Assembly: GCA_046052125.1 (NCBI GenBank)
Contig: JBJOMY010000001.1
Span: 448,001-512,000, forward strand
Reading direction: 5' to 3'
Source: Cyanobacteriota bacterium
GTDB lineage: Bacteria > Cyanobacteriota > Cyanobacteriia > PCC-6307 > Cyanobiaceae
DNA length: 64,000 nt
In this document: positions 11,762-60,925 of the stretch, piece by piece
How positions within the stretch are numbered: position 1 is the stretch's first letter
How the letters are laid out: each line of letters begins with the position of its first letter
Notes under the pieces: generated by a model
Database searches by the model: none
What the model saw: only the letters and a program-made list of their open reading frames with translations
What the model was told of the DNA's origin: nothing
Made by a program: the position numbers and the translations under genes

Positions 11762-14700
11762 ATGTTCACGCAGGTCCGCTCCGCCTCCCGCCGCGTCAGC
11801 CCCGCGGAGGTGAACGGTCGGGCCGTGATGAAGGCCGTATACGTGGTGCTGGAGCCCCAGTATCAAAACGCGCTCACCCAAGCCGCCACCTCGCTCAACG
11901 ACCAAAACGGTCCGCTGGCGATCGATCTGTGTGGATACCTGATCGAAGAGCTGCGCGACCCGACGAATTACGCCGACTTCTGCGCCGATGTGGCCGAAGC
12001 CGATGTGTTCATCGGCTCGCTGATCTTCATTGAAGACCTGGCCCAGAAGGTGGTGGAGGCCGTGGCACCTCACCGCGATCGCCTCAAGGCCGCCGTGGTG
12101 TTCCCCTCCATGCCGGAGGTGATGCGCCTCAACAAGCTCGGCACCTTCTCCATGGCCCAGTTGGGCCAAAGCAAGAGCGCCATTGCCGGCTTCATGAAGA
12201 AGCGGAAGGAGGCCGGCGGCGCCGGCTTCCAAGACGCGATGTTGAAGCTGCTCAACACCCTGCCCACGGTGTTGAAGTATCTGCCGGTGGAGAAGGCGCA
12301 GGATGCCCGCTCCTTCATGCTCAGCTTCCAGTACTGGCTGGGCGGCACTCCGGACAACCTCCGGAACTTCCTGCTGATGCTGGCGGATAAATACGTCTTC
12401 CCCCGCAACAGCGACGACCGGCCCGCGCTGCAGGTGGCCGATCCTGTTGTGTTCCCCGATCTGGGCATCTGGCACCCTCTGGCCCCCTCGATGTTCGAGG
12501 ACCTCAAGGAGTACCTCAACTGGAACGCCAGCCGCAAAGACCTCTCGGAGAAAGCCCGCAAAGGCCCGGTGATCGGCCTGGTGCTGCAGCGCAGCCACAT
12601 CGTCACCGGCGATGAAGCCCACTACGTGGCGGTGATCCAGGAGATGGAATTCCGCGGCGCCACCGTGATTCCGGTGTTCTGCGGCGGCCTCGACTTCACC
12701 AAGCCGGTGAATGCCTTCTTCTACGACCCGATCAATCCCGATGTGCCGTTGGTGGACGGCGTGGTGTCACTCACCGGTTTTGCCCTCGTGGGCGGCCCGG
12801 CCCGCCAGGACCACCCCAAGGCGATCGAGGTGCTGAAGAAGCTCAATCGTCCCTACATGGTGGCGCTGCCGCTGGTGTTCCAGACCACCCAGGAATGGGA
12901 AGAGAGCGACCTCGGCCTGCACCCGGTGCAGGTGGCGCTGCAGATCGCGATCCCTGAGCTTGATGGCGCCATTGAGCCGATCGTGCTCAGCGGCCGCGAC
13001 GACGCCACCGGCAAGGCCCACACCCTGCAAGACCGGGTGGATGCCATCGCCGAGCGGGCGATCCGCTGGGCCTCGCTGCGGATCAAGCCCCGCGCCGAGA
13101 AGAAGCTGGCGATCACGGTGTTCAGCTTCCCGCCCGATAAGGGCAACGTGGGCACCGCCGCCTACCTCGACGTGTTCGGCTCGATCTACCGCGTGCTCGA
13201 GGAGATGCGGGCCAAGGGCTACGAGGTGAAGGATCTGCCCGCCACTCCCAAGGCGCTGATGGAGGCGGTGCTCCAGGACCCTGAAGCACTGGAAGGAGCC
13301 CCCGAGCTAGCCATCGCCCACCGCATGAGCGTGGAGGAATACGAGCGGCTCACCCCCTATTCCGAGCGCCTTGAGGAGAACTGGGGCAAACCGCCCGGCA
13401 CCCTCAACACCGATGGCACCAACCTGCTGATCTTCGGCCGCCACTTCGGCAACGTGTTTGTTGGCGTGCAGCCCACCTTCGGCTACGAGGGTGATCCGAT
13501 GCGCTTGCTCTATTCCCGCAGCGCCAGCCCGCACCACGGCTTTGCCGCCTACTACACGTATCTCGAGAAGGTGTGGGGCGCCGATGCGGTGCTGCACTTC
13601 GGCACCCACGGCTCGCTGGAGTTCATGCCTGGCAAGCAGATGGGCATGAGTGAAACCTGCTACCCCGATTCACTGATCGGCGCGCTGCCCAACCTCTACT
13701 ACTACGCCGCCAACAACCCCTCGGAAGCCACCATCGCCAAGCGGCGCGGCTACGCCGAAACCATCTCCTACCTCACCCCGCCTGCCGAGAACGCTGGCCT
13801 CTACAAGGGCCTCAAAGAGCTGGGCGAGCTGGTGGGCTCCTACCAGCAGCTGCGGGAAGGCTCCCGCGGTGTGCAGATCGTGAACGCCGTGGTGGAAACG
13901 GCCCGCCAGTGCAACCTCGATAAAGACGTTGAGCTGCCCGAGGTGGATGCCTCCGAGCTCGATCTCGATGCCCGGGATTCAGTGATTGGCGCGGTCTACC
14001 GCCAGCTGATGGAGATCGAGAGCCGCCTCCTGCCCTGCGGCCTGCACACCATCGGCAAGCCCCCCACCGCCGAGGAAGCGATCGCCACCCTGGTGAACAT
14101 CGCCGCCCTCGAGCGCGACGACGACGGCCTTCGCTCCCTGCCGGCCCTGCTGGCCGAGAGCAAAGGCCGCACCATCACCGACGTGTACGCCGGCAACGAC
14201 AACGGTGTGCTCGCCGATGTGGAGCTCAACCGCGTCATCACCGAGACATCCCGCGCCGCCGTGGGCGCGATGGTGCAGGCCGTGACCGGCACCGATGGCC
14301 GCGTGACCCTGCGCCGCAACTTCGCCTGGTTCTTCAATCTGTTGGAGCAGTTCGGCTTCAAGCTGCCCAGCCCCTGGCTGAGCGCCTGCCGCAACGCCGG
14401 CTTCCCGGATGTGGATCAGGCCGAGCTCGACAAGCTGTTCGGCTACCTGCAGTTCTGCCTTGAGCAGGTGTGCGCCGATCTGGAGATGCAGAGCCTGCTG
14501 CGGGCCCTCGATGGCGAATACGTGCTGCCCGGCCCCGGCGGCGACCCGATTCGCAACCCCGGTGTGCTGCCCAGCGGCAAGAACCTGCACGCCCTCGATC
14601 CCCAGGCCATCCCCACCAAGGCCGCGATCGCCGCCGCCAAGGGTGTGGTGGACAAACTGATCGAGCGTCAGAAGCAGGAGCAGGGCACCTGGCCCGAAAC

Positions 14701-15763
14701 GATCGCTTGCGTGCTCTGGGGCACCGACAACATCAAGACCTACGGCGAATCGCTGGCGCAGATCCTCTGGTTCATCGGCGTCAAGCCGGTGCCCGACTCC
14801 CTAGGCCGGGTGAACAAGCTGGAGCTGATCTCCCTCGAAGAGCTGGGCCGCCCCCGCATCGACGTGGTTGTGAACTGCAGCGGTGTGTTCCGCGACCTGT
14901 TCATCAACCAGATGGCGCTGATCGATCAGGGCGTGAAGATGGCCGCCGAGGCTGATGAGCCCCTGGAGATGAACTTCGTGCGCAAGCACTCCCAGGAGCA
15001 GGCCGAGAAGGAGGGCATCTCCCTGCGCGATGCCGCCACCCGCGTGTTCTCCAACGCCAGCGGCAGCTACAGCTCCAACGTGAACCTGGCGGTTGAGAAC
15101 AGCACCTGGGAAGAGGAGAACGAACTGCAGGAGATGTATCTCTCCCGCAAAACGTTCGCCTTCAACGCCGACAACCCCGGCGAGATGAACCAGAAGCGCG
15201 AGGTGTTCGAGTCGGTGATGAAGACCGCTGACGTGACCTTCCAGAACCTGGATTCCGCGGAGATCTCCCTCACCGATGTGAGCCACTATTTCGATAGTGA
15301 TCCCACCAAGCTGATCCAGGGCCTGCGCGACGACGGCAAGGCACCGGCGAGCTACATCGCCGACACCACCACCGCCAATGCCCAGGTTCGCTCGCTGAGC
15401 GAAACGATCCGCCTGGATTCACGCACCAAGCTGCTCAATCCCAAGTGGTACGAGGGCATGCTCAACTCGGGTTACGAGGGCGTGCGTGAAGTGGCGAAGC
15501 GCCTCAACTTCACCCTGGGTTGGAGTGCCACCAGCGGCGCCGTTGACAATTTCGTGTACGAAGAAGCAAACGAAACATTCATCAACGATCCGGAGATGCG
15601 CAAGCGGCTGATGGAGCTCAATCCCCATAGCTTCCGCCGCATTGTGGGCACGCTGCTGGAAGTTAACGGCCGCGGTTACTGGGAAACCTCCGACGAGAAC
15701 ATCCAGCAACTGCAGGAGATCTACCAGGAGATCGAAGACCGTATCGAGGGCGTGGCTAACTAA
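11762..15763 (+). CDS. chlH: Magnesium chelatase subunit H
   Basis: 1333 aa; [48 protein letters not shown]. Confidence 0.98.
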
Positions 15764-15774
15764 GGCCGCCGCGC

Positions 15775-16047
15775 ATGACATCCGCCAATGCCATGCGCCT
15801 CAAGCTGCTGCTGAAGGATGATCCACTCCTTCGGCAGCAGCTTTCTCATTGCGACAGCCCCGATCAAGCGATTGCCGTCTGCGCAAAGTTGCAGCTTCAG
15901 ATCAGCATGGCCGATCTCCTGCGCATGGAGGCTCAGATGACATTGACGCTCAATGATGAGCAACTCAATGCGTGGTATGAAACGCCCTACTGGAAGAGGG
16001 TCTTGATCAGCCTGGGCGCTGTACAACCGACTGAGCAGTCTCTATAA
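15775..16047 (+). CDS. Nif11-like leader-peptide domain protein
   Basis: D--LRQQL...AIAVCAK...IS-ADL...LNDEQL pattern of Nif11 leaders; no Gly-Gly cleavage site. Confidence 0.65.
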   Translation: MTSANAMRLKLLLKDDPLLRQQLSHCDSPDQAIAVCAKLQLQISMADLLRMEAQMTLTLNDEQLNAWYETPYWKRVLISLGAVQPTEQSL

Positions 16048-16081
16048 CCAACACGATTGGGAACGATCTCCCAGAGCCGGA

Positions 16082-16110
16082 TTGACACCCAAGGTGCGTT
16101 GGCTTAGATA
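16082..16110 (+). promoter_or_regulatory. Putative sigma70-type promoter for the hlyD-GT2 operon
   Basis: TTGACA-N17-TAGATA; perfect -35, imperfect -10. Confidence 0.4.
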
Positions 16111-16143
16111 CAGCGCAGAGATGCTCTAGAGCCCAGGGACGAT

Positions 16144-17328
16144 TTGGACTCAGACCAAGGGCACTCCACTCCATCTCTGCAACAGCACCAAACCGAGCAA
16201 GGCTGGTCTGCAGCCAAAACCAAATGGCTGCTCCAAACGCGCTGGCGCCAAGTGTCGGGGGCCGGCCTGCTCGGCCTCTGCATTGTCACCTTGGCAGTGA
16301 TCAATGTAAGAAAGCGCGCTGCCGAGGCTTACATCACCGGTGATGTGATCACCGTGAAGAGCCCGATCCAAGGACGGGTGGACGATGAAATGCTCAGCAC
16401 GGGGGAACTGTTCAAACCCGGCACGGCACTGGTGTCAGTGGTGGCCAGCCGGCAGGACGAAGCCCGGCAGCAGACAGCCCAATTGGAACTGGAGCAAACC
16501 AGAAAAGACATTCGCTCCACCGAGCTCGAACTCGACAATCTTGTGAGCGCCAACCAGGCAAGGCTGCGGAACGACCTCCAGAGCGCTGAGCGCGAACGAT
16601 TCGACCTCGAGGGTCAGGAGCAGCGTTATGCAAAGCAGGCGAGCCGATACAGGGAGCTGGTGAGCGTGGGTGCTGTGGATCCAGACACCCTGGCAGGCGT
16701 TGAAGCCAACGCCAACAGCTACCGGCAGCGCGCCACTAATCAACGGCGTGTTGTGAGCGACCTCCGGCAGGAACTCCAGGACGCCGAGAGCAAACGCAAA
16801 GCTGGCAGCAGGCAACTACCCCGATCAACGCGCAGGTTGGAAATGCTGGAACTGGAAATCAGCCGCATCAACAATCAGCTCAATCTCTTGAGAGGAAAAG
16901 AGAAAAAGCTTCTGGAGCTCGTGAATTCCAATCAACGGCGTTCTCAGTTTGTCTACAAGCCCAGCTTCAATGGCCTGATGCTCAGTAATCGCATCGCACG
17001 TGGCTCTGAAGTGAATGCTGGAGAAGCGTTGATCACTGTGGTGGACTGCGATCAGCTGAGGGTTGAGGCTGTGTTCAGCAGCAACAAGGTGAAGGACGTG
17101 CGCATCGGCGATCAGGTGAAGCTGAAGATGGCTCACCAGAACAGCGACGTCAGTGGTCGAGTGATCAGCATGCGTGGCGTGAGGGGGATCCGCGCACTGG
17201 AGAACACTGATGCGGCGCAGTTCAAGGCCACCAACGACGACCGGATGCGCCTTCAGATTGCACTCCCAGCAGACCACCAAGCCAGTAAAGACTGCCGACT
17301 GGGCGACCGCGTGGACGTTGAGCTCTAG
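16144..17328 (+). CDS. HlyD-family membrane fusion protein (BgsB/XcsB-like)
   Basis: N-terminal TM, VKSPIQG lipoyl half, long coiled coil, second lipoyl half and C-terminal beta-barrel. Confidence 0.85.
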   Translation: MDSDQGHSTPSLQQHQTEQGWSAAKTKWLLQTRWRQVSGAGLLGLCIVTLAVINVRKRAAEAYITGDVITVKSPIQGRVDDEMLSTGELFKPGTALVSVVASRQDEARQQTAQLELEQTRKDIRSTELELDNLVSANQARLRNDLQSAERERFDLEGQEQRYAKQASRYRELVSVGAVDPDTLAGVEANANSYRQRATNQRRVVSDLRQELQDAESKRKAGSRQLPRSTRRLEMLELEISRINNQLNLLRGKEKKLLELVNSNQRRSQFVYKPSFNGLMLSNRIARGSEVNAGEALITVVDCDQLRVEAVFSSNKVKDVRIGDQVKLKMAHQNSDVSGRVISMRGVRGIRALENTDAAQFKATNDDRMRLQIALPADHQASKDCRLGDRVDVEL

Positions 17329-17331
17329 GCG

Positions 17332-19302
17332 ATGGGTGCGGAAGTTCTCTTCCTGGCCATTGCTCTGCCAGTTGCGATCACGCTGCTGTTGCCCCGCTCC
17401 AATTGGCGCAGACTGCTACTGGTTGGCACCATTTTTATCTTTGGCTTGAGATATTTATGGTGGAGACTGGAGACCTTCCCTTGGACGAGCGATCAGTGGA
17501 GCGCTGAGTGGATCTGGTGGGTGGTGGTTCTCGCGATTGAACTGGCCGTGATCCTGGAGGTGACTCTCTTTTTGCTCTCGGTTGGCTGGCTCACGGATCG
17601 GCGAAACCAGGCCGACGTGGCCGAAGCACAACTCAGAGAGCGCTACGCCGTCCATGGCATCGACGCCATTCCTTCAGTGGATGTGTTCATCACCAGCTAC
17701 AACGAAGGACCAGAAGTTTTAGAGAAATCAATCCTGGGAGCGAGCTCGATCGACTACCCCAAGATCAGGGTCTGGGTGCTCGATGATGGCAAACGAGCCT
17801 GGCTTCAACAGTTTTGCGATGACGCTGGCATTCGATACATCACACGCGCGAGCAACACAGGTGCCAAAGCAGGAAATATCAATCACGCCTTGCAGCAGAG
17901 CGCAGGCGATCTGGTGATGCTGATGGATGCCGATTTTGTGGCCTATCGAAATTCGGCCTGGAGAACAGCGGGCCTATTCGCCGACCCCAAAATCGGCACC
18001 GTGCAAACGCCCCAGAACTTCTTCAATCCCGATGCGATTCAACACAACCTGGGGATCGCAGCGAGCTGGTGCGACGAACAATCCTTCTTCTTTCGCTTAA
18101 TCGCCCGAGGCCGAGACGCCCTTGGGGTGGCGTTCTGCTGCGGCTCCTGTTCGGTGCATCGGCGCAAAGCATTGATGGAAAGCAATGGCTTTCCAACGGA
18201 CTCCATCACCGAAGATATCCTCCTCACCATCAATTTCTGCCGGCTGGGCTGGAAAACGATCTATCTGGCCGAACCGATCTCCACAGGCCTGGCAGCAGAA
18301 ACGCTCGACTCCTTCTTTATCCAACGCAAACGCTGGGGGCGCGGCGGCATTCAGGTGGCCTGGTTGATGCTTGGACGCAAAGGGCTGAACTGGATTCAGC
18401 GGATCTTCTTCCTCCCCTACTCATGGATCACGCAATACAACAGCAGGCTGTTTTTTCAGATCGTGCCGATCGTGTTTTTCTTTTCAGGTATGGCGCCTCT
18501 GCCTGAGGTGGAGGCCGGCACGATTCTCAGCTACCAAGCCAGCTTCCTGGCTTCGATGATCGTGTCGATGGTGGTTCTCAGCGAGGGCTACTACATGCCT
18601 GTATTCAATGAAGCGGTGAGTTTGTTTGCCGCCTTTGAACTGGCACCAGAAATCCTGGCTGCCCTTGCCAAACCCTTTAGCAAGGGATTTGCCGTGACAC
18701 CAAAGGGGAACGATTCCCTATCGGGCTCCATCCTGCCCTACCAACAAACCTTGGTCCCCACCTCGGTGTTGCTGGTGCTCAACATTCTGATCCTCTGGAG
18801 AATCCTCTTTGCGATTGGAGACAGCGTCTCCGAGAGTTCCACAGGCTTACTCGCCTACGGCTTTCTCTGGTGTGTCTTCAACATCGTGCTGCTGGTGATC
18901 TCAGTGCTCCTATCGCTGCAGCGTCCTCAACCGCGGCTGGAGCATCGGATGTTGATCAACAGGATCGCCCACGTGCGCAACCAGGATGGATCGATCATTG
19001 AGGCCAGGCTCATTGATCTATCCCTCACGGGAGCCCTCATTGAACCTACTCACAACGAGAGCTTCAGCGGGGATCCGATCCAGATGTTGGAACTGGAAAC
19101 TGGCTTGATGGTTCCCGTGATTCAGCAATGGAAGCGCCGGGGCGAATTACTGGCACTCAACTTTGCCGAACTGGATCTCGCCACGAAGAAAGGAGTGGTT
19201 GCTTATGCCTTCAGCGGCGCATTCAAATCCTCCGAACAGCCGCAGCAGATTGATCTGGGCAAAACGATCCGCCAGGTGATGGCCCAAGCGGCTAGGGCCT
19301 AG
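17332..19302 (+). CDS. Processive GT2 beta-glucan synthase (cellulose-synthase-like) with C-terminal PilZ
   Basis: DDG, KAGNIN, DADF, QTPQNF, FCCGS, TED, QRKRW; PilZ-type RLEHR and DLSLTG. Confidence 0.92.
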   Translation: MGAEVLFLAIALPVAITLLLPRSNWRRLLLVGTIFIFGLRYLWWRLETFPWTSDQWSAEWIWWVVVLAIELAVILEVTLFLLSVGWLTDRRNQADVAEAQLRERYAVHGIDAIPSVDVFITSYNEGPEVLEKSILGASSIDYPKIRVWVLDDGKRAWLQQFCDDAGIRYITRASNTGAKAGNINHALQQSAGDLVMLMDADFVAYRNSAWRTAGLFADPKIGTVQTPQNFFNPDAIQHNLGIAASWCDEQSFFFRLIARGRDALGVAFCCGSCSVHRRKALMESNGFPTDSITEDILLTINFCRLGWKTIYLAEPISTGLAAETLDSFFIQRKRWGRGGIQVAWLMLGRKGLNWIQRIFFLPYSWITQYNSRLFFQIVPIVFFFSGMAPLPEVEAGTILSYQASFLASMIVSMVVLSEGYYMPVFNEAVSLFAAFELAPEILAALAKPFSKGFAVTPKGNDSLSGSILPYQQTLVPTSVLLVLNILILWRILFAIGDSVSESSTGLLAYGFLWCVFNIVLLVISVLLSLQRPQPRLEHRMLINRIAHVRNQDGSIIEARLIDLSLTGALIEPTHNESFSGDPIQMLELETGLMVPVIQQWKRRGELLALNFAELDLATKKGVVAYAFSGAFKSSEQPQQIDLGKTIRQVMAQAARA

Positions 19303-19361
19303 CGGCTGGATCGTGGACAGGCCTAACCAGGCTCGCTAGACCGCAGAGGGGTGAACAGGCC

Positions 19362-21362
19362 GTGAAGATTCGACTGCCACGCTTCGGTATACGGCCCCTC
19401 GGGATCCGGCTGACGACCCTCCCGTGGCTTGTGCTCGCAACGGGGCTTGGCCTCACGGGCCTGTGGTGTCACCAGCAGCGGCTCTTCACGCGACTGGAGC
19501 ACGAACGGATTGAGCGCGACCTGGCTAACGCGATCAGCAACGCGATCACCTCACGCCTGCAGACCAACATCGCGGTGCTCAATGCCGTGGTGGGCCTCTT
19601 CGATGCATCCAAAGAGGTGGACCAGCAGGAATTCAACGCCTTCTACCAAGCCCTGAACCATGGAGGGGAGACGTTGAGCGGCATCCAGGGCGTTGGTTAT
19701 GCCGTTGTGGTGCCCAACGGCGACATCTCTGGCTTTGAGCGACAGGTGAGAAGCGCCGGGAGACCCCACTTCACGATCAAACCTGCAGGATCACGCCCGC
19801 TGACCAGCGCCATCCTCTATCTGGAACCGAACGACTGGCGCAATCAGCGGGCCCTCGGATTCGACATGTATTCCCAGGTGACCAGGCGGGAAGCAATGCA
19901 GCTGGCCGTCAGCACCGGTGAGGCCGCCTTGAGCGGACCTGTCCGGTTGTTGCAGGAAAACTCGATCCGCCCCCAGATCGGAGCCCTGCTCTACCAAGCG
20001 ATCTACCGAACCCCGAGTGAAGGCTTCAACTCCAGCCAGGACCGGTTCAATCACCTCAGAGGTTGGGCCTATTCACCCTTACGGATGGAGGATCTGATCC
20101 AGGGCGCTCTGGCCAGAGTGGAGGATCCCGCCCTGCCAGGCACCGGCGTATTGATCTACGACGGCTCGCGCAATCGAGCCGACAACCTCCTCTTCGACAA
20201 CCTCAAACTCGCCAACAGCCCACAGCTCACCCATCCCACCTGGCTCGAGGTGAGCATCGCCAATCGCACCTGGGTGATTGGCATTCAGCTCGACTACCGC
20301 AAACTCAATCCCGAGGGCTGGAGCAACACCCTGCTGCTGCAGGCGCTACTGGGCGTGAGCCTCAGTGTGCTTGCTGCTGTGATCAGCCAACAGTTGATCC
20401 GCAATCACCAATCCGTTCGCCAGGCCCTGTTGCGGGAGCAGGAAGCCTCCAGGGAACGGGCCCTTGCAGGCACGGTGTTTGACAGCAGCCCGGTGGCGAT
20501 CGTGGTGACCGATGCCCAAGGCGTGATCCTGAAGGTGAATCAGGCCTTCTGCCAGCTCACGGGCTATTCAGAACTAGAAGCGCGAGGAAACACCGCCAAC
20601 CTGTTGCGTTCAGGCAGGCACGACAACAGCTTCTATCAGGAGATGTGGTCGGCGATTCTCTCCAAGGGCTACTGGAGTGGTGAGATCTGGAACCGCCACC
20701 GCAATGGTCAGATCATTCGCCATGAGCTCTCGATCACAGCGGTGCTGGATGAGCACCAACAGCCGAGCAGTTTCGTGGGCCTCCTGCGCGATGTGAGCGA
20801 GCGCTATCAGCAGGAAGAGCGGATGCGGTTCATGGCAACGCACGATCAGCTCACCGGATTAGCCAATCGCACCCTGCTGATCGAAGAACTGAATCGCAGT
20901 CTTGCCCTCGCCAAACGCCAGGGATTCGGCGTGGGGCTGCTGTTCATCGACCTCAACCGCTTCAAGCCGGTGAACGACCGCTACGGCCACAGCACCGGTG
21001 ATGCCTTGCTAAAGGCCGTGGCTCAACGGCTGACCAGCACCTGCCGCAGCAGTGACACCCTCTGCCGCCAGGGCGGTGATGAGTTCGTGGTGCTGATTCC
21101 CGATGCCCCCTCGATTGAGCACCTGCAAACGCTGGCCAGAAAGCTGGTGGGTGCTCTGGAGCAGCCGTTTCCTGCAGGGCCTGACCTACCGAAGGAGATC
21201 ACCATCAGCGCCAGCATTGGCATCGCCCGCTGGCCCGATCACGCCAGCGATGCGGACGCGTTGATCGAAGCAGCCGACACGGCGATGTATGCCGCGAAGT
21301 TGCAGGGCGAAGCCTCGATTGCCATTGCAGCCGGCATCACGACCTCCGACTCGCCGAGCTGA
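19362..21362 (+). CDS. Diguanylate cyclase with CHASE and PAS domains
   Basis: TM-CHASE (NQRALGFDM)-TM, PAS/PAC (W-GEIWNR), GGDEF with RSSD I-site. Confidence 0.92.
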   Translation: MKIRLPRFGIRPLGIRLTTLPWLVLATGLGLTGLWCHQQRLFTRLEHERIERDLANAISNAITSRLQTNIAVLNAVVGLFDASKEVDQQEFNAFYQALNHGGETLSGIQGVGYAVVVPNGDISGFERQVRSAGRPHFTIKPAGSRPLTSAILYLEPNDWRNQRALGFDMYSQVTRREAMQLAVSTGEAALSGPVRLLQENSIRPQIGALLYQAIYRTPSEGFNSSQDRFNHLRGWAYSPLRMEDLIQGALARVEDPALPGTGVLIYDGSRNRADNLLFDNLKLANSPQLTHPTWLEVSIANRTWVIGIQLDYRKLNPEGWSNTLLLQALLGVSLSVLAAVISQQLIRNHQSVRQALLREQEASRERALAGTVFDSSPVAIVVTDAQGVILKVNQAFCQLTGYSELEARGNTANLLRSGRHDNSFYQEMWSAILSKGYWSGEIWNRHRNGQIIRHELSITAVLDEHQQPSSFVGLLRDVSERYQQEERMRFMATHDQLTGLANRTLLIEELNRSLALAKRQGFGVGLLFIDLNRFKPVNDRYGHSTGDALLKAVAQRLTSTCRSSDTLCRQGGDEFVVLIPDAPSIEHLQTLARKLVGALEQPFPAGPDLPKEITISASIGIARWPDHASDADALIEAADTAMYAAKLQGEASIAIAAGITTSDSPS

Positions 21363-21367
21363 TCGAC

Positions 21368-22240
21368 TCAGCGCCAGAGCGCATCGGCCATGCGCGCCAC
21401 CTGCACGATCGGGCCGCCGTCATGCACGCGCACCACATCCACCCCCACCGATACGCACTGGGCGACCACGGCCGCCGTGCCCCAAAGACGCGCTTTCGCA
21501 CGCGGTTCCTCAAGAACCGCTCCAATGAAGCGTTTACGCGATGGGCCCACCAGCAAAGGAATCCCTTCGGCCCGCAGCAGTGGCAGTCCCCGCAACAACT
21601 CCAGGTTCTGCTCGGTGGTTTTTGCGAAGCCGAGGCCGGGATCCCAGATCAGCTGCTCGCGCCGCAGTCCAGCTGCCATGGCTCGTTCGCTGGCCTGCTG
21701 CAGTTCCGCCAGAACCACCGGCACCACACCAGCGCTGCCGTAATCGGTGAGGCCATCCATGCTCTGGCTGTCGCCCCGGGAGTGCATCAGCACATAGGGG
21801 CAGCCCGCCTGGGCCACTAGCGGCAGGATCGCGGGGTCCGCACGGCCGCCACTCACATCGTTGATCCAATCAGCACCGGCGGCCAAGGCGGCTTCTGCCA
21901 CCGGCGCGCGGAACGTGTCCACCGAGATCAGTGGACGGCTGTTGGCCTGGGGGTCATCGCTGCGGGGCGGGCAGCGCAGCTCACCGCACTCAATGGCGCC
22001 CCGGATCAACTGCAACGCCGGCAGCAGCCGCGCCAGCTCCTCAGCCGCGCCGACATCCTCGGCACCAGGGCGGGTGCTCTGAGCGCCAAGATCAACGATG
22101 TCCACCCCCTGATCCACCAGGCGCCGAGCCTGAGCCAGGGCTCGTTCGGGGCGATCAAAGCGGCCGCCGTCGCTGAAGGAATCGGGGGTGACGTTGATCA
22201 CCCCCATCACATGGGTGCGCTGACCCCAGCGCAGGCTCAT
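21368..22240 (-). CDS. folP: Dihydropteroate synthase
   Basis: MGVINVTPDSFSDGG, STRPGA, DPGLGFAK, SRKRF, RVHD. Confidence 0.95.
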   Translation of the reverse strand: MSLRWGQRTHVMGVINVTPDSFSDGGRFDRPERALAQARRLVDQGVDIVDLGAQSTRPGAEDVGAAEELARLLPALQLIRGAIECGELRCPPRSDDPQANSRPLISVDTFRAPVAEAALAAGADWINDVSGGRADPAILPLVAQAGCPYVLMHSRGDSQSMDGLTDYGSAGVVPVVLAELQQASERAMAAGLRREQLIWDPGLGFAKTTEQNLELLRGLPLLRAEGIPLLVGPSRKRFIGAVLEEPRAKARLWGTAAVVAQCVSVGVDVVRVHDGGPIVQVARMADALWR

Positions 22241-22980
22241 CAGGCTGCGACCGGCACCTGATAGTTGGCGATGCGGGCGAAGCCTTCGGGATCGAGGGAG
22301 GCGCCGCCCACCAGCACGCCGTCGATATCGCTCTGGGCCATCAATTGATCGATGGTGGCGGGGTTCACCGAACCGCCGTACTGAATCACCACCTCGGGGT
22401 AGCCCACCCACTGGCGGATCAGGCCGCAGATGCGGTTGGCTTCAGCCGCTTCACAGGTTTTGCCGGTGCCGATCGCCCAGATCGGCTCGTAGGCCACGAT
22501 CAACCGGGCTGGATCGAGCCCATCCACGCCCTGCTCCACCTGGCGACGAATCACGCGCTCGGCTTCGCCGGCTTCGCGCTGGGAATCACTCTCACCCACG
22601 CAGAGGATCGGGATGATGCCGTGCTTCTGGGCGCTGCGGGCGCGCAGATTGATCTGCTCGTCGGTTTCGCTGTAGTACTTGCGCGGCTCGCTGTGGCCCA
22701 CGATCGCGTGGGTCACGCCGTGCTCCAGCAGCATCGGCGCCGAGATCATGCCGGTGAAGGCACCTTTCTCCTGCCAGTGGATGTTCTGGGCAGAGATATG
22801 AATGCCGCTGCCGGCCAGGGCGCTGCTCAAGGTGGCGATCGCTGTGAAGGGGGGTGCGAGCACCACCTCGCGATCTTTGGGCAGGTTGGCCACCAGGGGC
22901 TTGAAGGCGTCGGCAAAGGCCTGCGCCTCAGCGCAGGTCATGTGCATCTTCCAGTTGCCTGCGATGACGGCCTTTCCCAC
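22240..22980 (-). CDS. tpiA: Triosephosphate isomerase
   Basis: [33 protein letters not shown]. Confidence 0.96.
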
Positions 22981-23008
22981 AGCGTCCTGAACGAATCGAC
23001 CCACCAAC

Positions 23009-23233
23009 CTATGGCACCACATGGGTCTGGCCATCGAGCTCTACGCGATCGCCTGGCTTGAGCTTGCGGCCCCGCTGGGTCTCCTGAAACCCGTTCACTC
23101 GCACCTCGCCGCCCTGGATGCGTTGCTTGGCCTCACCGCCGGTGAACGCCACCCCTTGCCATTTGAGGAATTGATCGAGGCGAATCGGCTCGGGTCGGTT
23201 GCCTGTGGAGCCGGCACCTGGAGATGGGGCCAA
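23009..23233 (-). CDS. RNA-binding S4 domain protein (YaaA/YbcJ-like)
   Basis: IRLDQFLKW...TGGEAK--IQ-GEV-VNG--ET-RGRKL; start uncertain. Confidence 0.85.
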
Positions 23234-23257
23234 AAAAAGCGCTGATAGCTTGCCCCG

Positions 23258-24994
23258 ATGCTCGCACCCCCTTCGGCCGGCTTCCGGCGGCTCCTCCCGC
23301 TGCTGGTGCCCTATCGCTCCGCACTCCTGGCCGGTGGGGCGTGCATGCTCGTGTTTGTGGTGTGTTGGCCGCTGCTGGCCTGGCTGGCCGGCCAACTGAT
23401 CCCCGCGATCGGCGCCGGTGATTTCGGCCGGGTGCTGCAGGTGATCGGCCTGGCCCTCAGCGTGTTCATGCTGCAGAAGCTGGCCCAGTTCGGCCAAGAC
23501 ACCCTGCTGGCCGGACCTGCATTGCAAGTGAGCCAGGAGCTGCGCCGCCGCCTGTTCGCGCGGCTGCAACGGCTGGATTTCGGCGTGCTGGAAAAACTCT
23601 CCGCCGGCGACCTCACCTATCGCCTCACCGAAGACGCCGATCGCGTCGGCGAGGTGATCTACAAAACGATTCAGGACACCACCCCTTCAGCGCTGCAGTT
23701 GGTGGTGGTGTTCGGCTACATGGTCTGGCTCGACTGGAAGCTGTCGCTGGGCACCTTGCTGTTGGCGCCGCTGGTGGCGGTGCTGGTGAGTGTGTTCGGC
23801 GCCAAGGTGATGGGCGCAGCCGAGAAGAGTCAGAAGCAGGTGAGCGAGCTGGCCGCCCTGCTCGGTGAGGCAATTGGCGGGCTGCCACTCGTGCGTGCCT
23901 TCGCCGCTGAACCCTGGCTGCAGCAGCGCTTCGAAACGGAGATCGATCTGCACCGCCGCGCCCGCTACCGCACCCAGCGGCTGCTGGCCCTGCAATACCC
24001 GGTGGTGGGCTTCCTGGAGGCCGCCGGCATCCTGGCGGTGCTGCTGATGGGCGCCGCTCGCATCCAAAGCGGCGACCTCAACGGCCAGGGCTTCAGTAGT
24101 TACGTGGCGGCCCTGCTGATGCTGATCGATCCGATCAGTCACCTCACCACCAACTTCAACGAGTTCCAGCAGGGGCAGGCCTCGCTGCGGCGCCTGCGGG
24201 AGATCGAGCAGCAGGCGGTGGAGCCACCCGATCGCCCCCAGGCACTGCCCCTGGGCCAGGTGGCGGGCGAACTCACCCTCGAGCAGGTGAGCTTCAGCTA
24301 CGAGGCCGAACAACCTGTGCTGCGCGACCTCAGCCTGCGGGTGGAGCCGGGCCAGGTGGTGGCGCTGGTGGGCCCCTCCGGGGCTGGCAAAAGCACCTTG
24401 TTCTCGCTGCTGCTGCGCTTCAACACCGCCCAGAGCGGCCGTGTGCTGCTGGATGGCCGCGATCTGGCGGATCTCAAGGCGAGCGAGCTGCGCAAGGCCG
24501 TGGCGCTGGTGCCCCAACAGAGCGCCGTGTTTTCCGGAACAGTGGCCGAGGCGATCGCCTTCGGCCGCCCGGCCAGCCCCGATCAGATCCGAGCCGCGGC
24601 ACGCCTGGCCAACGCCGACGGATTCATCGAAGCGATGCCCGGTGGCTACGACGCCCGCGTGGAAGAGCGGGGCAGCAACTTCTCGGGCGGTCAGCTGCAA
24701 CGGCTGGCCATTGCCCGGGCGGTGTTGGGGGATCCGGCGGTGTTGCTGCTCGATGAAGCCACCAGCGCCCTCGATGCCGAATCAGAAGAAGCGGTGCAGC
24801 GCGGGCTGGATCAGGCCATGGCCGGACGCACCGTGCTGGTGATCGCCCACCGCCTCTCCACGGTGCAGGAGGCCGATTCGATCGTGGTGCTCGAGCACGG
24901 CCAGATCGTGGATCAGGGCAACCACGACCTCTTGATCAGCCGCCCCGGCCGCTACCGCGATCTGTGCGAGCGGCAGTTGATCCGGGGGGCGTAA
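23258..24994 (+). CDS. ABC exporter, fused permease/ATP-binding (MsbA-like)
   Basis: TM domain, GPSGAGKS, FSGGQ, LLLDEATSALD, IAHRLST. Confidence 0.92.
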   Translation: MLAPPSAGFRRLLPLLVPYRSALLAGGACMLVFVVCWPLLAWLAGQLIPAIGAGDFGRVLQVIGLALSVFMLQKLAQFGQDTLLAGPALQVSQELRRRLFARLQRLDFGVLEKLSAGDLTYRLTEDADRVGEVIYKTIQDTTPSALQLVVVFGYMVWLDWKLSLGTLLLAPLVAVLVSVFGAKVMGAAEKSQKQVSELAALLGEAIGGLPLVRAFAAEPWLQQRFETEIDLHRRARYRTQRLLALQYPVVGFLEAAGILAVLLMGAARIQSGDLNGQGFSSYVAALLMLIDPISHLTTNFNEFQQGQASLRRLREIEQQAVEPPDRPQALPLGQVAGELTLEQVSFSYEAEQPVLRDLSLRVEPGQVVALVGPSGAGKSTLFSLLLRFNTAQSGRVLLDGRDLADLKASELRKAVALVPQQSAVFSGTVAEAIAFGRPASPDQIRAAARLANADGFIEAMPGGYDARVEERGSNFSGGQLQRLAIARAVLGDPAVLLLDEATSALDAESEEAVQRGLDQAMAGRTVLVIAHRLSTVQEADSIVVLEHGQIVDQGNHDLLISRPGRYRDLCERQLIRGA

Positions 24995-37996: not shown

Positions 37997-38047
37997 ACAT
38001 TGAAGTCAACATCAACTGCTAAGTTCGGCGAACATTTATCCGTCTGC

Positions 38048-38305
38048 GTGAAGCTGTCCACGTTTAGTTCAGAGTCTTCGGGACCCCGCAGCACGGCAGC
38101 CGCACAAACCTCCACACGCCATCAGCGGGAGCATCTGCTCTGTCTGAATCAGCAAGAAGCCTTGATGCTCTTCGGGCTGTTACAGGCCGCGCTAAGGCAT
38201 GAACCGAGCCGTCAAACACTGCTCAGCTGCGGCGACTACAAGCAATTCCACAGAGATCTCAGCCAGGCGCTAGCCGCCGGGTTGGCGAGTGACGCTGAGC
38301 CCTGA
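38048..38305 (+). CDS. Hypothetical protein
   Basis: ORF with a plausible globular C-terminal half; start uncertain. Confidence 0.4.
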   Translation: MKLSTFSSESSGPRSTAAAQTSTRHQREHLLCLNQQEALMLFGLLQAALRHEPSRQTLLSCGDYKQFHRDLSQALAAGLASDAEP

Positions 38306-38312
38306 AAGCCAC

Positions 38313-38507
38313 TCAGAAATAGAGGCGAGCAACCGTGGGCTCAGGACGGGCGGACCGCTCGGCTTTCGGGGACCAGCGAAGCCTGAGCTCCTCAAGGCTC
38401 AGGCTCCATTCCTCAATGGGCTGCTGAGCAGCGACCAAACTCTCCAACCAATCACGAAATTGCTCGAGGCCGAGTAAATCAGCTTGCAGATCGGTTAACT
38501 CAGACAC
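38313..38507 (-). CDS. Hypothetical protein
   Basis: 64-aa ORF with amphipathic pattern, converging on the previous ORF. Confidence 0.4.
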   Translation of the reverse strand: MSELTDLQADLLGLEQFRDWLESLVAAQQPIEEWSLSLEELRLRWSPKAERSARPEPTVARLYF

Positions 38508-39943: not shown

Positions 39944-39950
39944 ACAACCA

Positions 39951-40343: not shown

Positions 40344-40355
40344 CGTGCACGGCTA

Positions 40356-44165: not shown

Positions 44166-44210
44166 GATGGGAAGGGTTAGGGAGCGGAGAGTGAAAAGAG
44201 TGAAAAACGA

Positions 44211-45113: not shown

Positions 45114-45115
45114 GA

Positions 45116-58176: not shown

Positions 58177-59706
58177 TCACTGTAAAGAGCCGGTTTCCAG
58201 CTCCAGCCCGGCGCGGCTGAGGTTCCAGCGGTGAATCGCCGTGGCCTGGGCGGAGCGGGCGGCCTGGAGATTGCGCTGGGCGATCAACAGCTCAGTGATT
58301 GGTGCCACTCCGGCGCGATAACGGAGCAGCGCATCCCGCACCGCTTCATCACCGGCGCGGGCCGCCGCCGCTGCGGCCCGCATCTGGGGGCCTGAAGCCT
58401 GATGGCTGGCAAACCAGGTTTCCACCTGTTGGGTAATGCTCTGCTCGGCCAGTTCGATCGCCAGTTCGCTCTGCTCGGCGCGGCGGCGTGCCAGCGCCAC
58501 CGATTCGCGCGTGAGGCCGCCATCAAAGATGGGCTGCCTTAAAGAGATCACCGCTCCCCAGTCGTAAAAGCTGCCAGAGGCATTCCCGCTGCTGTTCAGT
58601 GTTGGCAAATCCGGGCCCGAGGCGCCGTTCGCAGACACCCGCGGGGTGCTGTTGAGCACCGGCACATTCAGCCAGTCCGCATTGATTCCGCCGCCCAGCA
58701 ACAGGCCCACCTGAGGGAGCGCTCCGGCGCGGGCCACCTGCACGCGGGCCAGCTGGGCCTGGCGTTGCTTCTCCAACGCTTGCAGAGCGGGCCGATCGGC
58801 AAAGGCCTTCTCCAGGGTTGCGTTGAGGCTGAGGGGCCAGGCCGGCAGAGGCTGCAGCGGATCCGAGAGCACCACCTGTTGCTGCGGCGGCAGGTTGAGG
58901 CTGCGGGCCAGGGCGCTGAGAGCGATCTGGCGCTGGGAGCGCGCTTCCGCCAGGCCCTGCCGATCGGTTTCCACCAATGCCTCGGCCTGCAGGGTGTCGA
59001 TGCGTGCCGCCAGGCCTTCGCGGCGGATCGCACTGGCATCGCTGAGCAGACGCGTGGACACCCCCAGGGCGCTCTCCCACACCGGAATCAGCGCCTCTGC
59101 CAGCTGGGCATTGAGATAGGCGCTCACGATCGCGAAGCGGGTGCGCCGTTGCTGCTCGCTCTGCTCAGCCTGGGCGGCCTGCACACCGGCTCGGGCTGCT
59201 TGCTGCAGCGGTCCGCGGCCGAAATCAATCAGCGGCATGGTGAGCGCAAGGCCCGCATTCACAAAGGTGTTCTGCACCACCGCGTAGCCATCACCACCGA
59301 GATCGAAATTGAGATCCCCGATCGCCGGCAGGTTGGAGATGAAGCCAAAGTCCGTGCCCACCTGGGCGTAGGTGCCCAACCCCACTAAATCGAGCTTGGG
59401 CAGGAAGCGGGCCCGCGCGAGGCCCTGCAGGGCTCGGCTTTCATCGAGCTGCAGCGCACTGCTACGCAGGGCCAAGGAACGGTTCACCCCGAGCGCGATC
59501 GCCTGCTCCAGGCTCAGGGTTAAAGGGGTCTGGGTTATTCCCGCCGCATCGGGCTTTGTGGGGGCCTGAAGTTCCGCCGCATGGCTGGGCTGACTAGCGA
59601 ACGGCGCCACAAGGGGAGCCGTTGCCAGCCCAATCGCTCCGAGCCATGCCGCAGACAACCTGTAGAACGAGCGGCGAGGACGGCGGAACAAGCCTTCAGG
59701 TCGCAA
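58177..59706 (-). CDS. TolC-family outer membrane efflux protein
   Basis: LSLEQAI, P-LDL, P-IDFG, PIFDGG, RY-AGV----ELL-AQ OEP repeats; start probably TTG 59706 or 59691. Confidence 0.9.
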   Translation of the reverse strand: MRPEGLFRRPRRSFYRLSAAWLGAIGLATAPLVAPFASQPSHAAELQAPTKPDAAGITQTPLTLSLEQAIALGVNRSLALRSSALQLDESRALQGLARARFLPKLDLVGLGTYAQVGTDFGFISNLPAIGDLNFDLGGDGYAVVQNTFVNAGLALTMPLIDFGRGPLQQAARAGVQAAQAEQSEQQRRTRFAIVSAYLNAQLAEALIPVWESALGVSTRLLSDASAIRREGLAARIDTLQAEALVETDRQGLAEARSQRQIALSALARSLNLPPQQQVVLSDPLQPLPAWPLSLNATLEKAFADRPALQALEKQRQAQLARVQVARAGALPQVGLLLGGGINADWLNVPVLNSTPRVSANGASGPDLPTLNSSGNASGSFYDWGAVISLRQPIFDGGLTRESVALARRRAEQSELAIELAEQSITQQVETWFASHQASGPQMRAAAAAARAGDEAVRDALLRYRAGVAPITELLIAQRNLQAARSAQATAIHRWNLSRAGLELETGSLQ

Positions 59707-59755
59707 GTTGCCGGTACCGTAGCCGCAGTGTGCAGCTCCCAGAGCGCTGGGCGAG

Positions 59756-60925
59756 ATGGCGGTGGTGAGCGATCGCATCCCCCAGCTGCTGCCCATGGCT
59801 GCCGTTTCTGCGCTGTGCGCGGGATGGGCGCTCTCTCCTTCCATCGCTGTGAAGGTGGAAGGCAGTGCGGTGTTGCTGCCTCCCGAAAGCCGCGTGGGGG
59901 TTTACGCGCGATCCCCCGGCCAGGTGCAGGAGTTGTTGCGCCGCGTGGGCGAGCAGGTGCAGCAGGGCGACCTGCTGTTGAGCATCAGTCGGGTGGATCA
60001 ACAGGCCGCCGGGGCTGGTGGCGTGGGCCCCAACAGCAACGCCCTGCTCGATCAGATCAAGGCCCTCGATCGCCAGGCCCAAACGATCCAATCGCGGATC
60101 GGCACCCTGCGCGTGGCCAACCAGCCGGTGGGTCTGCAGCTCAAGGCCCTGGAAACGTTGCGCCGGGATGAGGTGATTCCCCGCTACAGCCCGCTTTGGG
60201 TGGGAGCCCAGGACCTCTACCTGCGCAACAACAACGCGATTGAGGAGCTGCAGGCCCAGCTCGCTCAGCTCGGTGCCTCGCGGGCAGAGCTGCAGGCCCA
60301 GCGCAACAGCCAATCGGTGCTCTCCCCCCGCAACGGCATGCTGCTCAGCCTGAGCGTGAATCCGGGGCAGGCGGTGGTGCCCGGTCAACGGCTGGGAACC
60401 GTGGGGCTTGGCCCACGGGGCAGTGCCAATGGCGAGGAACGCACCGCCATCGCCCTGTTCAGCGATGCCGATGTGGCGCGGCTCAAGCCCGGCATGCCCA
60501 TCCAGCTCGATCTGCAGCTGCAAACCCGCGATCGCTACGGCGGCAGCTCCCAGCGCTACGGACTGGTGGAGGGCCGCATCGTTGACATCTCGCCGGCCAG
60601 TGCCGATCTGGCGGAGGTGTCGCGCGCCGTAGGCGACACGGATCTCGCCGGCAGCCTGATCGCCCGCAGCCGTCAGGCCGCCTTCGGCGAAGGGGGCGAC
60701 CCACTGGCCACCCTGCCCGAGAAGGCCACCGCGCCGGTACGCATCGTGACCCTCAGGCTCGAGCGGGCCGACACCCCCTCCGGCCTGCGCTGGAGCGGCA
60801 GCCGCGGGCCCGATCTCAGCCTGGAGAACGGCACACCTGCCAAGGGTGAAGTGGTGGTGGAGCGTCGCCGACCGCTGAGCTTTGTGCTTCCCTTCCTGCG
60901 CTGGCTGGGAGGCATGGAGCGATGA
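59756..60925 (+). CDS. HlyD-family membrane fusion protein, NHLM bacteriocin-secretion type
   Basis: V-V-G-AVL, lipoyl halves, coiled coil, YG---G-I, TPSG-RWS-S-GP...VE-RRP-SFV-P-LR C-terminus. Confidence 0.85.
   Translation: MAVVSDRIPQLLPMAAVSALCAGWALSPSIAVKVEGSAVLLPPESRVGVYARSPGQVQELLRRVGEQVQQGDLLLSISRVDQQAAGAGGVGPNSNALLDQIKALDRQAQTIQSRIGTLRVANQPVGLQLKALETLRRDEVIPRYSPLWVGAQDLYLRNNNAIEELQAQLAQLGASRAELQAQRNSQSVLSPRNGMLLSLSVNPGQAVVPGQRLGTVGLGPRGSANGEERTAIALFSDADVARLKPGMPIQLDLQLQTRDRYGGSSQRYGLVEGRIVDISPASADLAEVSRAVGDTDLAGSLIARSRQAAFGEGGDPLATLPEKATAPVRIVTLRLERADTPSGLRWSGSRGPDLSLENGTPAKGEVVVERRRPLSFVLPFLRWLGGMER

Follow-up and report, generated by a model that had tools for sequence, protein, structure and literature searches.

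The 64,000-nucleotide stretch of contig JBJOMY010000001.1 (assembly GCA_046052125.1) analysed here, which we call the window, carries three consecutive genes encoding an HlyD-family adaptor, a family 2 glycosyltransferase (GT2) of the beta-glucan synthase type and a diguanylate cyclase, and it is this group of genes, together referred to as the module, that is described below. A preliminary description had taken the three genes to be a tight, co-oriented run; this was borne out, as the three open reading frames (ORFs) lie on the same strand with gaps of 3 nt between hlyD and the GT2 gene and of 59 nt between the GT2 gene and the cyclase gene. The module comprises:

16144..17328, + strand: hlyD, HlyD-family membrane-fusion/periplasmic adaptor, 394 aa, TTG start (Pfam and transmembrane (TM) prediction)
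17332..19302, + strand: GT2 beta-glucan synthase of the BcsA superfamily, 656 aa (Pfam, NCBIfam, motifs)
18919..19299, + strand: predicted C-terminal PilZ domain of the synthase, residues ~530-656 (motifs and profile match)
19362..21362, + strand: CHASE-PAS-GGDEF diguanylate cyclase, membrane-bound, 666 aa (Pfam, TIGR00254, motifs)

The synthase matched PF13641 (77.6 bits) and PF00535 (71.4 bits), and its best NCBIfam model was TIGR03030 (CelA), with 376.7 bits over residues 7-635 against a cut-off of 699.1; NF008558, the BcsA equivalog, gave 266 bits (cut-off 992), and the PgaC (82 bits) and NodC (74 bits) models were weaker. The D, D, TED and QxxRW motifs, previously listed as intact, are indeed present as DDG151, DAD199, TED293 and QRKRW331, and FCCGS268 and the gating loop FAVTPK453 (FxVTxK) are likewise intact. 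Approximately seven TM segments are predicted, two of them N-terminal, along with a cytoplasmic GT domain and gating loop. Towards the C-terminus the protein reads R535-x3-R539 and D562-L-S-L-T-G. The PilZ family of Pfam scored 20.7 bits here (E 0.001), under its cut-off of 22.5, and it was not among the Pfam matches listed at E<=0.01, but the assignment of PilZ motifs to this protein nevertheless held, as R535, S564 and G567 never vary among 58 aligned relatives and conservation of R539 reaches at least 90%. Moreover, the alignment of the profile of these relatives with E. coli BcsA runs on through the PilZ domain (9b8v; E 1.5e-125, profile positions 9-626 on chain residues 179-794), and the isolated PilZ domain 4i86 is likewise matched (E 9.6e-4, profile positions 526-629); the six best solved-structure matches of the profile are all BcsA. 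By these features residues ~530-656 are a predicted receptor of the PilZ type for cyclic di-guanosine monophosphate (c-di-GMP).

The cyclase matched the Pfam CHASE (175.9 bits), PAS (53.1 bits) and GGDEF (PF00990, 159.9 bits) domains and TIGR00254 (145.5 bits, cut-off 37.4), and has an intact GGDEF571 motif with an RSSD I-site (RxxD) five residues upstream; the sequence RSSDTLCRQGGDEF begins at residue 562. The adaptor matched PF16576 (47.1 bits) and PF13437 (42.3 bits) and has a single predicted N-terminal TM segment at residues 37-55. When the genes were compared with those of genomes G218 and G784, ratios of nonsynonymous to synonymous substitution rates (dN/dS) of 0.08-0.09 were obtained for the GT2 gene, 0.09-0.10 for hlyD and ~0.11 for the cyclase gene. 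Judged by its reading frames, motifs and substitution rates, the module is real, intact and under purifying selection.

The absence of bcsB, bcsC and an endoglucanase gene, remarked on for the run itself, was found to extend to the entire genome (2.64 Mb in 10 contigs, 99.96% complete), in which profile searches at E<=1 gave no match to BcsB (PF03170), BCSC_C (PF05420), GH8 (PF01270), GH44 (PF12891), GH5 (PF00150), GH9 (PF00759) or GH16 (PF00722). An HlyD adaptor and a PilZ-bearing GT2 encoded 3 nt apart, with no BcsB or BcsC, make a pair of the Xcs/Bgs kind, as had been proposed. An HlyD gene lies directly upstream of the GT2 gene in 42 of the 70 metagenomic relatives examined, and also in bgsBA, on A. 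fabrum pAt and on Bradyrhizobium plasmids.

To place the synthase, a first tree was built with FastTree from 181 rows, after listed proteins of less than 600 aa and one duplicate locus had been dropped, and two later trees were built with IQ-TREE (LG+C20+F+G4, quick search) from two subsamples of these rows (64, then 68), with support from the Shimodaira-Hasegawa-like approximate likelihood ratio test (SH-aLRT) only. The references were BgsA of S. meliloti and of R. etli CFN42, both directly preceded by an HlyD gene; BcsA of E. coli K-12 and of Cereibacter sphaeroides; the GT2s encoded beside HlyD genes on A. fabrum pAt and on a Bradyrhizobium plasmid; and XcsA of T. vestitus (P0394, BAC07560.1), Synpcc7942_2151 (P0246), Tlr1795 (P0137) and the GT2 of Synechococcus sp. 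CC9311 (P0279), the last being identical to an ORF of genome G277. CrdS and Synpcc7942_1398 were outside the tree, and searches of plasmid records yielded BgsA-type, pAt-type and BcsA genes only. All three trees agree and, when rooted on the two BcsA sequences, resolve two clades. Clade I (99% SH-aLRT) is entirely cyanobacterial and contains XcsA, the 2151/Tlr1795 group and a DUF4079-linked group that includes a paralogue from the same genome as the window. Clade II (96%) contains the A. fabrum and Bradyrhizobium pair and then divides (97%) into a 12-row window clade together with the CC9311 type (99%) on one side and 30 non-cyanobacterial rows (95%) on the other; the BgsA subclade (S. meliloti, R. 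etli, P0082, P0104, P0080 and P0092; 100%) is deeply nested within the 30 rows. These trees carry no bootstraps, the CC9311 branch is very long and amino-acid composition varies between rows. Forcing the 34 cyanobacterial rows into one clade cost 41.2 log-likelihood units (approximately unbiased (AU) test, p 0.0006), the group having been named after the tree was seen.

It can be seen from this topology that the window GT2 groups neither with canonical BcsA nor with XcsA and, since it is sister to the 30-row clade in which BgsA is nested, that it is not a BgsA orthologue. The grouping with canonical BcsA that the preliminary description had named as counting against mixed linkage was not recovered, and neither was a place inside the BgsA clade. 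The adaptor gave a partly different picture. In BLASTP, once the adaptor of a second cassette form described below (form B; 41% identical) is set aside, its best matches were the CC9311-type adaptor (122 bits, 26% identity) and a further cyanobacterial adaptor (58 bits); against BgsB it gave only partial alignments of 33-35 bits, and it is neither BgsB-like nor orthologous to BgsB. By these comparisons, the relationships of the adaptor appear to differ in part from those in the GT2 tree.

Several observations were made on the relatives themselves. A marine picocyanobacterial HlyD-GT2 pair (L062; G277:C1:1338000-1357000) lies beside a divergent GH44 gene. Downstream partners in the sister clade were a GH5 cellulase-family gene at 4 of 54 loci (L166, L173, L185 and L194), Peripla_BP_6 at three (L150, L154 and L167) and a second HlyD gene at two (L140 and L143); such partners are absent from the passages available of the papers cited here. 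P0082, which carries the source label 'curdlan synthase', is 74-77% identical to BgsA-type plasmid genes. The genome of the window encodes a second BcsA-like GT2 (G000:C8:17604-19070, - strand; L004:8077-10155) of 692 aa, which we considered as a second copy of the module and ruled out, as it is only 34% identical, belongs to the DUF4079-linked clade, adjoins a DUF4079 gene and has neither a PilZ match nor an HlyD neighbour. The same GT2-DUF4079 neighbourhood was seen again in a second S. elongatus-like match (L130) and in 6 of the 29 other cyanobacterial loci examined, and the DUF4079-linked GT2 seems to be the usual BcsA-like gene in the family.

Table S8 of Oehme et al. (2019) gives 33 positions at which the BcsA, CrdS and BgsA subfamilies are each conserved internally but differ from one another (passages of PMC6821405). 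We mapped these through C. sphaeroides BcsA, using a numbering offset of +24 that was checked on five motifs, and the resulting counts are alignment-dependent. The window GT2 matched the BgsA column at 24 positions, the CrdS column at 13 and the BcsA column at 7. For reference, true BgsA scored 30 in the BgsA column, C. sphaeroides BcsA scored 27 in its own column and 10 in that of BgsA, and XcsA scored 15 (BgsA), 9 (CrdS) and 10 (BcsA). Positions 479/480 are Y-E in XcsA and in the two BcsA references, V-G in BgsA and V-S in the window GT2, while positions 317-322 are C-C-G-S-C-S in the window GT2 as in BgsA. However, GH5-linked metagenomic GT2s of the sister clade (n=3) scored 25-26 of 33 in this comparison and PilZ-bearing relatives 22-29; because these score alike, the signature marks clade II as a whole rather than the linkage. 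It therefore leans towards a BgsA-like channel entrance as far as residue identities can tell, without discriminating the linkage type.

The window synthase and S. meliloti BgsA share 39% identity (397 bits), compared with 29% for XcsA (239 bits), yet the likeness to BgsA does not extend to its C-terminus. BgsA has been reported to lack PilZ motifs and to bind c-di-GMP through a non-PilZ C-terminal tail (passages of PMC5567048). In a pairwise alignment, BgsA (L024:4965-6959) reads 'PRRLLQ' and 'SLSLDKA' at the places of the window PilZ motifs, which look like degenerate remnants; with these remnants and the nesting of BgsA among PilZ-bearing relatives, the 'novel' c-di-GMP tail may itself be a degenerate PilZ domain. 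By its motifs, the predicted regulation of the window synthase is clearly BcsA/XcsA-like.

What the enzyme makes had been given as cellulose or mixed-linkage glucan, with a leaning towards the latter. In our estimate a product with beta-1,4 linkages only has nearly an even chance, a mixed-linkage or 1,3-containing product is a serious possibility that falls below even, and any other product is improbable. It is quite possible, although short of an even chance, that the module is a divergent Xcs-type cellulose system in which the endoglucanase was lost or never needed. Consistent with this, the predicted PilZ gating is of the canonical kind found in BcsA and XcsA, CelA is the best-scoring family model, and the nearest outgroup HlyD-GT2 pair (that of P0279) lies beside a GH44 endoglucanase-family gene; furthermore, the four sister-clade loci with a GH5 'cellulase' downstream include GT2s whose signature counts resemble that of the window GT2. 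Cellulose systems usually carry an endoglucanase, and the lack of a GH5, GH8, GH9 or GH44 gene in this genome argues against a cellulose product, as do the failure to group with either verified kind of cellulose synthase, the AU result against a single cyanobacterial clade (with its post hoc group), the 7 BcsA-column matches, and VS at 479/480 where the BcsA references and XcsA read YE.

The alternative of a mixed-linkage (1,3;1,4)- or other 1,3-containing glucan, made as by BgsBA but under canonical PilZ gating, can be entertained tentatively. The GT2 belongs to the clade that contains BgsA and not to those of BcsA and XcsA, it shares more identity with BgsA than with XcsA and most of the BgsA-type positions, including the C-C-G-S-C-S stretch and V479, and the synthase is a two-gene system without an endoglucanase, like bgsBA. 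This reading survives because no grouping with canonical BcsA, and no bcsB/xcsC partner elsewhere in the genome, was found, and to this extent the earlier choice between cellulose and mixed-linkage glucan stands. It is weakened, however, by the position of the GT2 as sister to the whole 30-row clade, outside the BgsA subclade, in a tree without any named CrdS; by an adaptor that is not BgsB-like; and by the PilZ motifs that the enzyme keeps in place of the non-PilZ C-terminal c-di-GMP domain of BgsA. The signature, moreover, is a trait of the wider clade that GH5-linked relatives share. The earlier leaning towards mixed linkage is unproven.

The module lies within a larger accessory island, whose features and flanks, together with the outer-membrane factor gene discussed below, are:

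15764..21367, no strand: whole accessory island, between the stop codons of convergent chlH and folP
15775..16047, + strand: small Nif11-domain-like ORF, first gene of the island, 90 aa (TIGR03798, Atlas)
11762..15763, + strand: chlH (Mg-chelatase H subunit), conserved left flank (PF02514, 1222 bits)
21368..22411, - strand: folP (dihydropteroate synthase), conserved right flank (PF00809, 260.6 bits, residues 69-330)
58177..59844, - strand: TolC/OEP-family outer-membrane factor gene, candidate export duct (PF02321, 158 bits)

We compared 30 folP loci of the genus, that of the window included. The neighbour on the folP stop side was chlH in 13 and the cyclase gene in 9, and neither was visible within 1.5 kb in 8; at the empty site the chlH-folP spacing is 11-18 nt (L099/L100). 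As chlH directly abuts folP in 13 of the 30 loci, the 5.6 kb from 15764 to 21367 represent an insertion. The GC content of the island is 0.54-0.61, compared with 0.647 for the genome, and at third codon positions it is ~0.69, compared with 0.87 in chlH. The flanks are conserved, with identities of 95-99% for chlH in related loci and of 59-93% for folP in the genus as a whole. An arginine-rich N-terminal extension of ~57 residues precedes the Pterin_bind domain in the folP ORF, and since the orthologous frames of relatives carry TGA stops in this extension, the true start probably lies inside the ORF. The small ORF matched TIGR03798 at E 0.0036, under the cut-off, and a 'Nif11 domain-containing protein' cluster came first among its Atlas matches (score 0.96); its identity to the counterparts at 8 related loci is 78-92%, with a dN/dS of 0.09-0.16. 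It accompanies the cyclase gene, also in genome G069, which has no hlyD-GT2 pair. A second stretch of low GC content in the window (38000-48000, 0.55-0.59) holds corA, ppk1, pstSCAB-type genes and a phoB-like regulator and is a phosphate-acquisition region, not a second polysaccharide island.

Two forms of the island were found. Form A, consisting of the small ORF, hlyD, the GT2 gene and the cyclase gene, occurs in the genome of the window, G218 and G784, while form B, with the same four genes, occurs in G202, G282, G168 and G347, and in G323, where the small ORF was not detected. Between the two forms protein identity is 95-99% for chlH, 78-82% for the small ORF, 65-74% for the cyclase and 81-85% for folP, but 37-41% for HlyD and 50-53% for the GT2. 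Nucleotide identity is correspondingly 41-62% across ~16.0-19.35 kb, against 77-82% in the small ORF and 66-75% in the cyclase gene, and it is exactly this ~16.0-19.35 kb stretch that G069 lacks. Because of this drop in identity and the gap in G069, hlyD-GT2 appears to behave as a replaceable cassette within a conserved frame, and by these alignments there are at least two very divergent forms of the cassette between conserved flanks. The states seen at the chlH/folP site are empty, cyclase-only (G069), synthase-only (L135) and both. A third variant, in G782 (L212, G782:C248:1-9000), lies outside the chlH/folP site, its GT2 and HlyD being 61% and 47% identical to those of the window. This G782 cassette is directly upstream of an orthologue (68% identical) of the window gene at 55857-57980, a neighbour of the 58-kb TolC gene; its contig ends 60 nt past the GT2 gene, and the TolC orthologue of G782 lies 861 nt from the start of contig C230. 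The best explanation of the island is a horizontally mobile element of 5.6 kb at the chlH/folP junction of a Vulcanococcus-like freshwater picocyanobacterium. The term picocyanobacterium, used from the outset, fits, as the only named-genome loci with a close copy are those of a Vulcanococcus sp. metagenome-assembled genome (MAG; 97%) and a Cyanobacteria MAG (90%).

The distribution of the module is patchy. Among 45 genomes of the genus, the synthase (E<=1e-150) is present in 9, and in 5 of the 21 of high quality, while cyclase orthologues (E<=1e-100) are present in 17. In 400 sampled genomes of the family, orthologues of at least 50% identity are confined to this genus; G277, from another genus, has the 35%-identical HlyD-GT2 pair beside the GH44 gene, and the remaining matches, at ~30-35% identity, look like the DUF4079-linked paralogue type. 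Across 400 sampled genomes of the phylum, nothing beyond the family exceeded 36% identity or 289 bits. In the protein database, among the matches listed, 38 were 47-91% identical, one of them named Vulcanococcus, and there was then a gap to 43% (461 bits), below which the named sources are non-cyanobacterial (Magnetospirillum, Gemmataceae, Hyphomicrobiales, Phyllobacterium and others). Near-identical DNA, with at least 55% of the sampled words, was found in 15 public runs. Two of them are possibly source material, and the rest come from nine studies of freshwater, estuary, aquatic and, in one case, marine metagenomes.

Short metatranscriptome contigs from four libraries of four studies, with 0-6 differences, fall on hlyD (16137-16434, 16203-16353 and 16034-16256), on the GT2 gene (18112-18278 and 18708-18984), on the GT2/cyclase junction (19233-19388, which bridges it) and on the cyclase gene; a further contig (16937-17297) covers mostly the 3' end of hlyD and stops ahead of the GT2 start. 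These RNA-library contigs show presence only; their depth cannot rank genes and uncovered parts carry no meaning. A scan of 15000-23500 with Rfam gave one sub-threshold chance match and no c-di-GMP riboswitch, and terminator-like sites were at chance level in a sigma-70-type promoter/terminator scan, which is uninformative here.

With regard to export, the polymer had been suggested to leave through a TolC encoded elsewhere, such as that at 58 kb. The genome does encode four OEP/TolC proteins, but the 58-kb gene is one of four, and its orthologue is broken in the module-bearing genome G168. Orthologues of this gene occur in 20 of the 45 genomes of the genus; that of G168 (C1:185229-186836) has four TGA and one TAG in-frame stops in a genome that is complete and in which the module is intact. 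In favour of this gene, the G782 cassette adjoins the orthologue of its neighbour in the window. TolC is genetically required for the BgsBA system (passages of PMC13438883), and a tripartite XcsAB-TolC model has been proposed (passages of PMC12430437). By analogy, export via a TolC encoded elsewhere would be the natural model.

We consider it probable that the module is a synthase-dependent, c-di-GMP-gated beta-glucan secretion system on a mobile island, and the mechanism given in the preliminary description is largely right. In such a system the CHASE domain would sense a periplasmic or extracellular cue, to which the PAS domain may add a cytoplasmic input, and the GGDEF domain would make c-di-GMP, the adjacent cyclase being the most likely local source. 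The PilZ domain would keep the synthase shut until c-di-GMP binds and the gating loop is freed, whereupon the inner-membrane GT2 would polymerise UDP-glucose into a linear beta-glucan and thread it through its own channel. The single-pass HlyD adaptor would span the periplasm and connect with an outer-membrane factor of the TolC type whose gene lies elsewhere, a step proposed because of the TolC requirement of BgsBA and the tripartite Xcs model. The polymer would then coat or glue cells, giving aggregates or microcolonies. In this account the domains, motifs, gene order, purifying selection, patchy distribution and position in the trees come from the sequences, while the substrate, the binding of c-di-GMP, the duct formed by adaptor and outer-membrane factor, the specificity of the cyclase for the synthase and the phenotype are inferred. 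A number of observations weigh against this reading. The TIGR03030 score is far under its cut-off, and the Pfam PilZ score is also sub-threshold. No outer-membrane partner is linked to the island. RNA-library depth was 1-5 for hlyD and the GT2 gene, far below that of chlH, and DNA carry-over is possible; the promoter scan found no sigma-70-like sites, although such a scan is ill-suited to cyanobacteria. Finally, cyclase and synthase can occur apart: G069 has the cyclase gene and small ORF at the site and no hlyD-GT2, the metagenomic locus L135 has hlyD-GT2 at the chlH/folP site and no cyclase gene, and G782, with hlyD-GT2 at another locus, has no cyclase gene on the visible side and no orthologue at E<=1e-100, although this genome is 84% complete and the 3' side of its GT2 gene runs off the contig.

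The last of these points bear on whether the cyclase serves the synthase. The genome has five GGDEF matches (the cyclase and four others), three EAL matches and three PilZ matches (the synthase and two stand-alone), and the idea of a self-contained circuit, the only one for c-di-GMP in the genome, was rejected on these counts. A GGDEF gene (62856-63977, - strand) and, past the end of the window, two GGDEF-EAL genes (G000:C1:514527-515771 and 516485-517663) form a cluster ~42-50 kb downstream of the island, near the 58-kb TolC gene. Of the 'dedicated circuit' of the preliminary description, the adjacency stood, the cyclase gene adjoining the synthase gene in 8 of the 9 synthase-bearing genomes of the genus; the dedication is doubtful, because cyclase-only and synthase-only genomes or loci exist alongside four other GGDEF genes. 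Since cyclase and synthase are separable, their adjacency may partly reflect an insertion hot spot. In its full form, this alternative holds that the chlH/folP site gathers independent cassettes and that the cyclase, not being dedicated, signals mainly to other receptors. The four site states, the greater spread of the cyclase (found in 17 of the 45 genomes, the synthase in 9), the fall in identity between forms A and B over 16.0-19.35 kb only, with the small ORF and cyclase gene staying alike, and the stand-alone PilZ and additional GGDEF genes all point in its direction. We nevertheless regard it as rather unlikely: the only exception to the adjacency is the incomplete G782, where the locus lies off the contig end; the genes are co-oriented with a 59-nt gap and an RNA-library contig across the GT2/cyclase junction; and GGDEF genes (PAS-GGDEF and GAF-GGDEF) also lie beside BcsA-like synthase genes in 2 of 29 other cyanobacterial loci (L064:3-749 and L068:3895-4689). 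A non-glucose polymer (chitin-, poly-N-acetylglucosamine- or hyaluronan-like) is very improbable, for although the core motifs are common to processive GT2 synthases of differing specificity and weak PgaC and NodC matches were obtained, the CelA match spans residues 7-635, the FxVTxK loop and PilZ domain are typical of glucan synthases and the six best solved matches are BcsA.

Returning to the c-di-GMP-gated glucan secretion system, its most specific version, in which this would be the first cyanobacterial PilZ-gated mixed-linkage glucan synthase, an ancestral-type member of the BgsA/CrdS side, horizontally acquired as a swappable cassette beside a CHASE cyclase, seems to us unlikely at present. 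If it were true, the presence, absence or allele of the cassette would decide whether aggregates or microcolonies form on an extracellular cue. Although picocyanobacteria are usually regarded as single free cells, aggregates or microcolonies are formed by some strains, with consequences for grazing losses and carbon export. The island is a candidate for strain-specific clumping and may account for the difference between strains that clump and those that do not. The synthase also looks like a natural intermediate, with BgsA-like catalytic core and channel residues and a BcsA-like PilZ switch, and this combination could help to separate the determinants of linkage type from those of c-di-GMP gating. 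More generally, cyanobacteria hold at least three BcsA-like synthase lineages, namely XcsA with the Synpcc7942_2151/Tlr1795 type, the DUF4079-linked type and the window type, the last being closer to proteobacterial and planctomycete enzymes.

Pairs of HlyD and a PilZ-bearing GT2 are known in cyanobacteria from Xcs and from S. elongatus and Nostoc operons, and the Xcs system of Thermosynechococcus comprises XcsA (Tll0007), the HlyD-like XcsB and the endoglucanase XcsC, with a proposed TolC exit (passages of PMC12430437). Like Xcs as described there, the module has a PilZ-bearing GT2 (the PilZ domain of XcsA, P0394, scored 55.7 bits), an HlyD adaptor in place of BcsB/BcsC, a cyanobacterial host, predicted c-di-GMP control and a likely TolC-type exit encoded elsewhere. 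Unlike Xcs, its GT2 is 29% identical to XcsA and in the other major clade, the genome has no GH44, GH5, GH8 or GH9 match (the GH family of XcsC itself not being established), the run includes a cyclase gene, and the module takes the form of a rarely found island, not of a conserved set of genes. With BgsBA of S. meliloti and R. etli, which is activated by c-di-GMP and needs TolC (passages of PMC5567048 and PMC13438883), it shares an HlyD gene directly upstream of a GT2 of ~660 aa with ~7 TM segments, no endoglucanase and 24 of 33 BgsA-type positions, and BgsBA is its best match among plasmid records (38-40% identity). The module differs in that the GT2 is outside the BgsA subclade and has canonical RxxxR/DxSxxG motifs in place of degenerate remnants, the HlyD protein gives 33-35 bits to BgsB, and the host is a cyanobacterium.

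The CC9311-type HlyD-GT2-GH44 system (P0279) is the nearest outgroup for both genes and is also picocyanobacterial, its GT2 being 35% identical (sister at 99% SH-aLRT) and its HlyD 26% identical (122 bits). It has the divergent GH44 gene, no cyclase gene and no Pfam PilZ on record, unlike the module, and its GT2 comes close to being an orphan, its single relative being 75% identical. With canonical BcsA the synthase shares the catalytic core, the gating loop and the PilZ domain, the family profile reaching E. coli BcsA at E 1.5e-125, but there is no BcsB, BcsC or BcsZ, there are two N-terminal TM segments rather than four, only 7 of 33 BcsA positions match, and BcsA is the outgroup of the tree. 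A limited full-text search of the open-access literature found no description of the module, and term look-ups in a small selection of recent picocyanobacterial papers gave no occurrences of cellulose, glucan or GGDEF. Relative to the known systems, what appears to be new is a picocyanobacterial synthase lineage on the BgsA side of the family that nonetheless carries a canonical PilZ domain, the linkage of this synthase to a CHASE cyclase, and a polymorphic cassette at a single hot spot.

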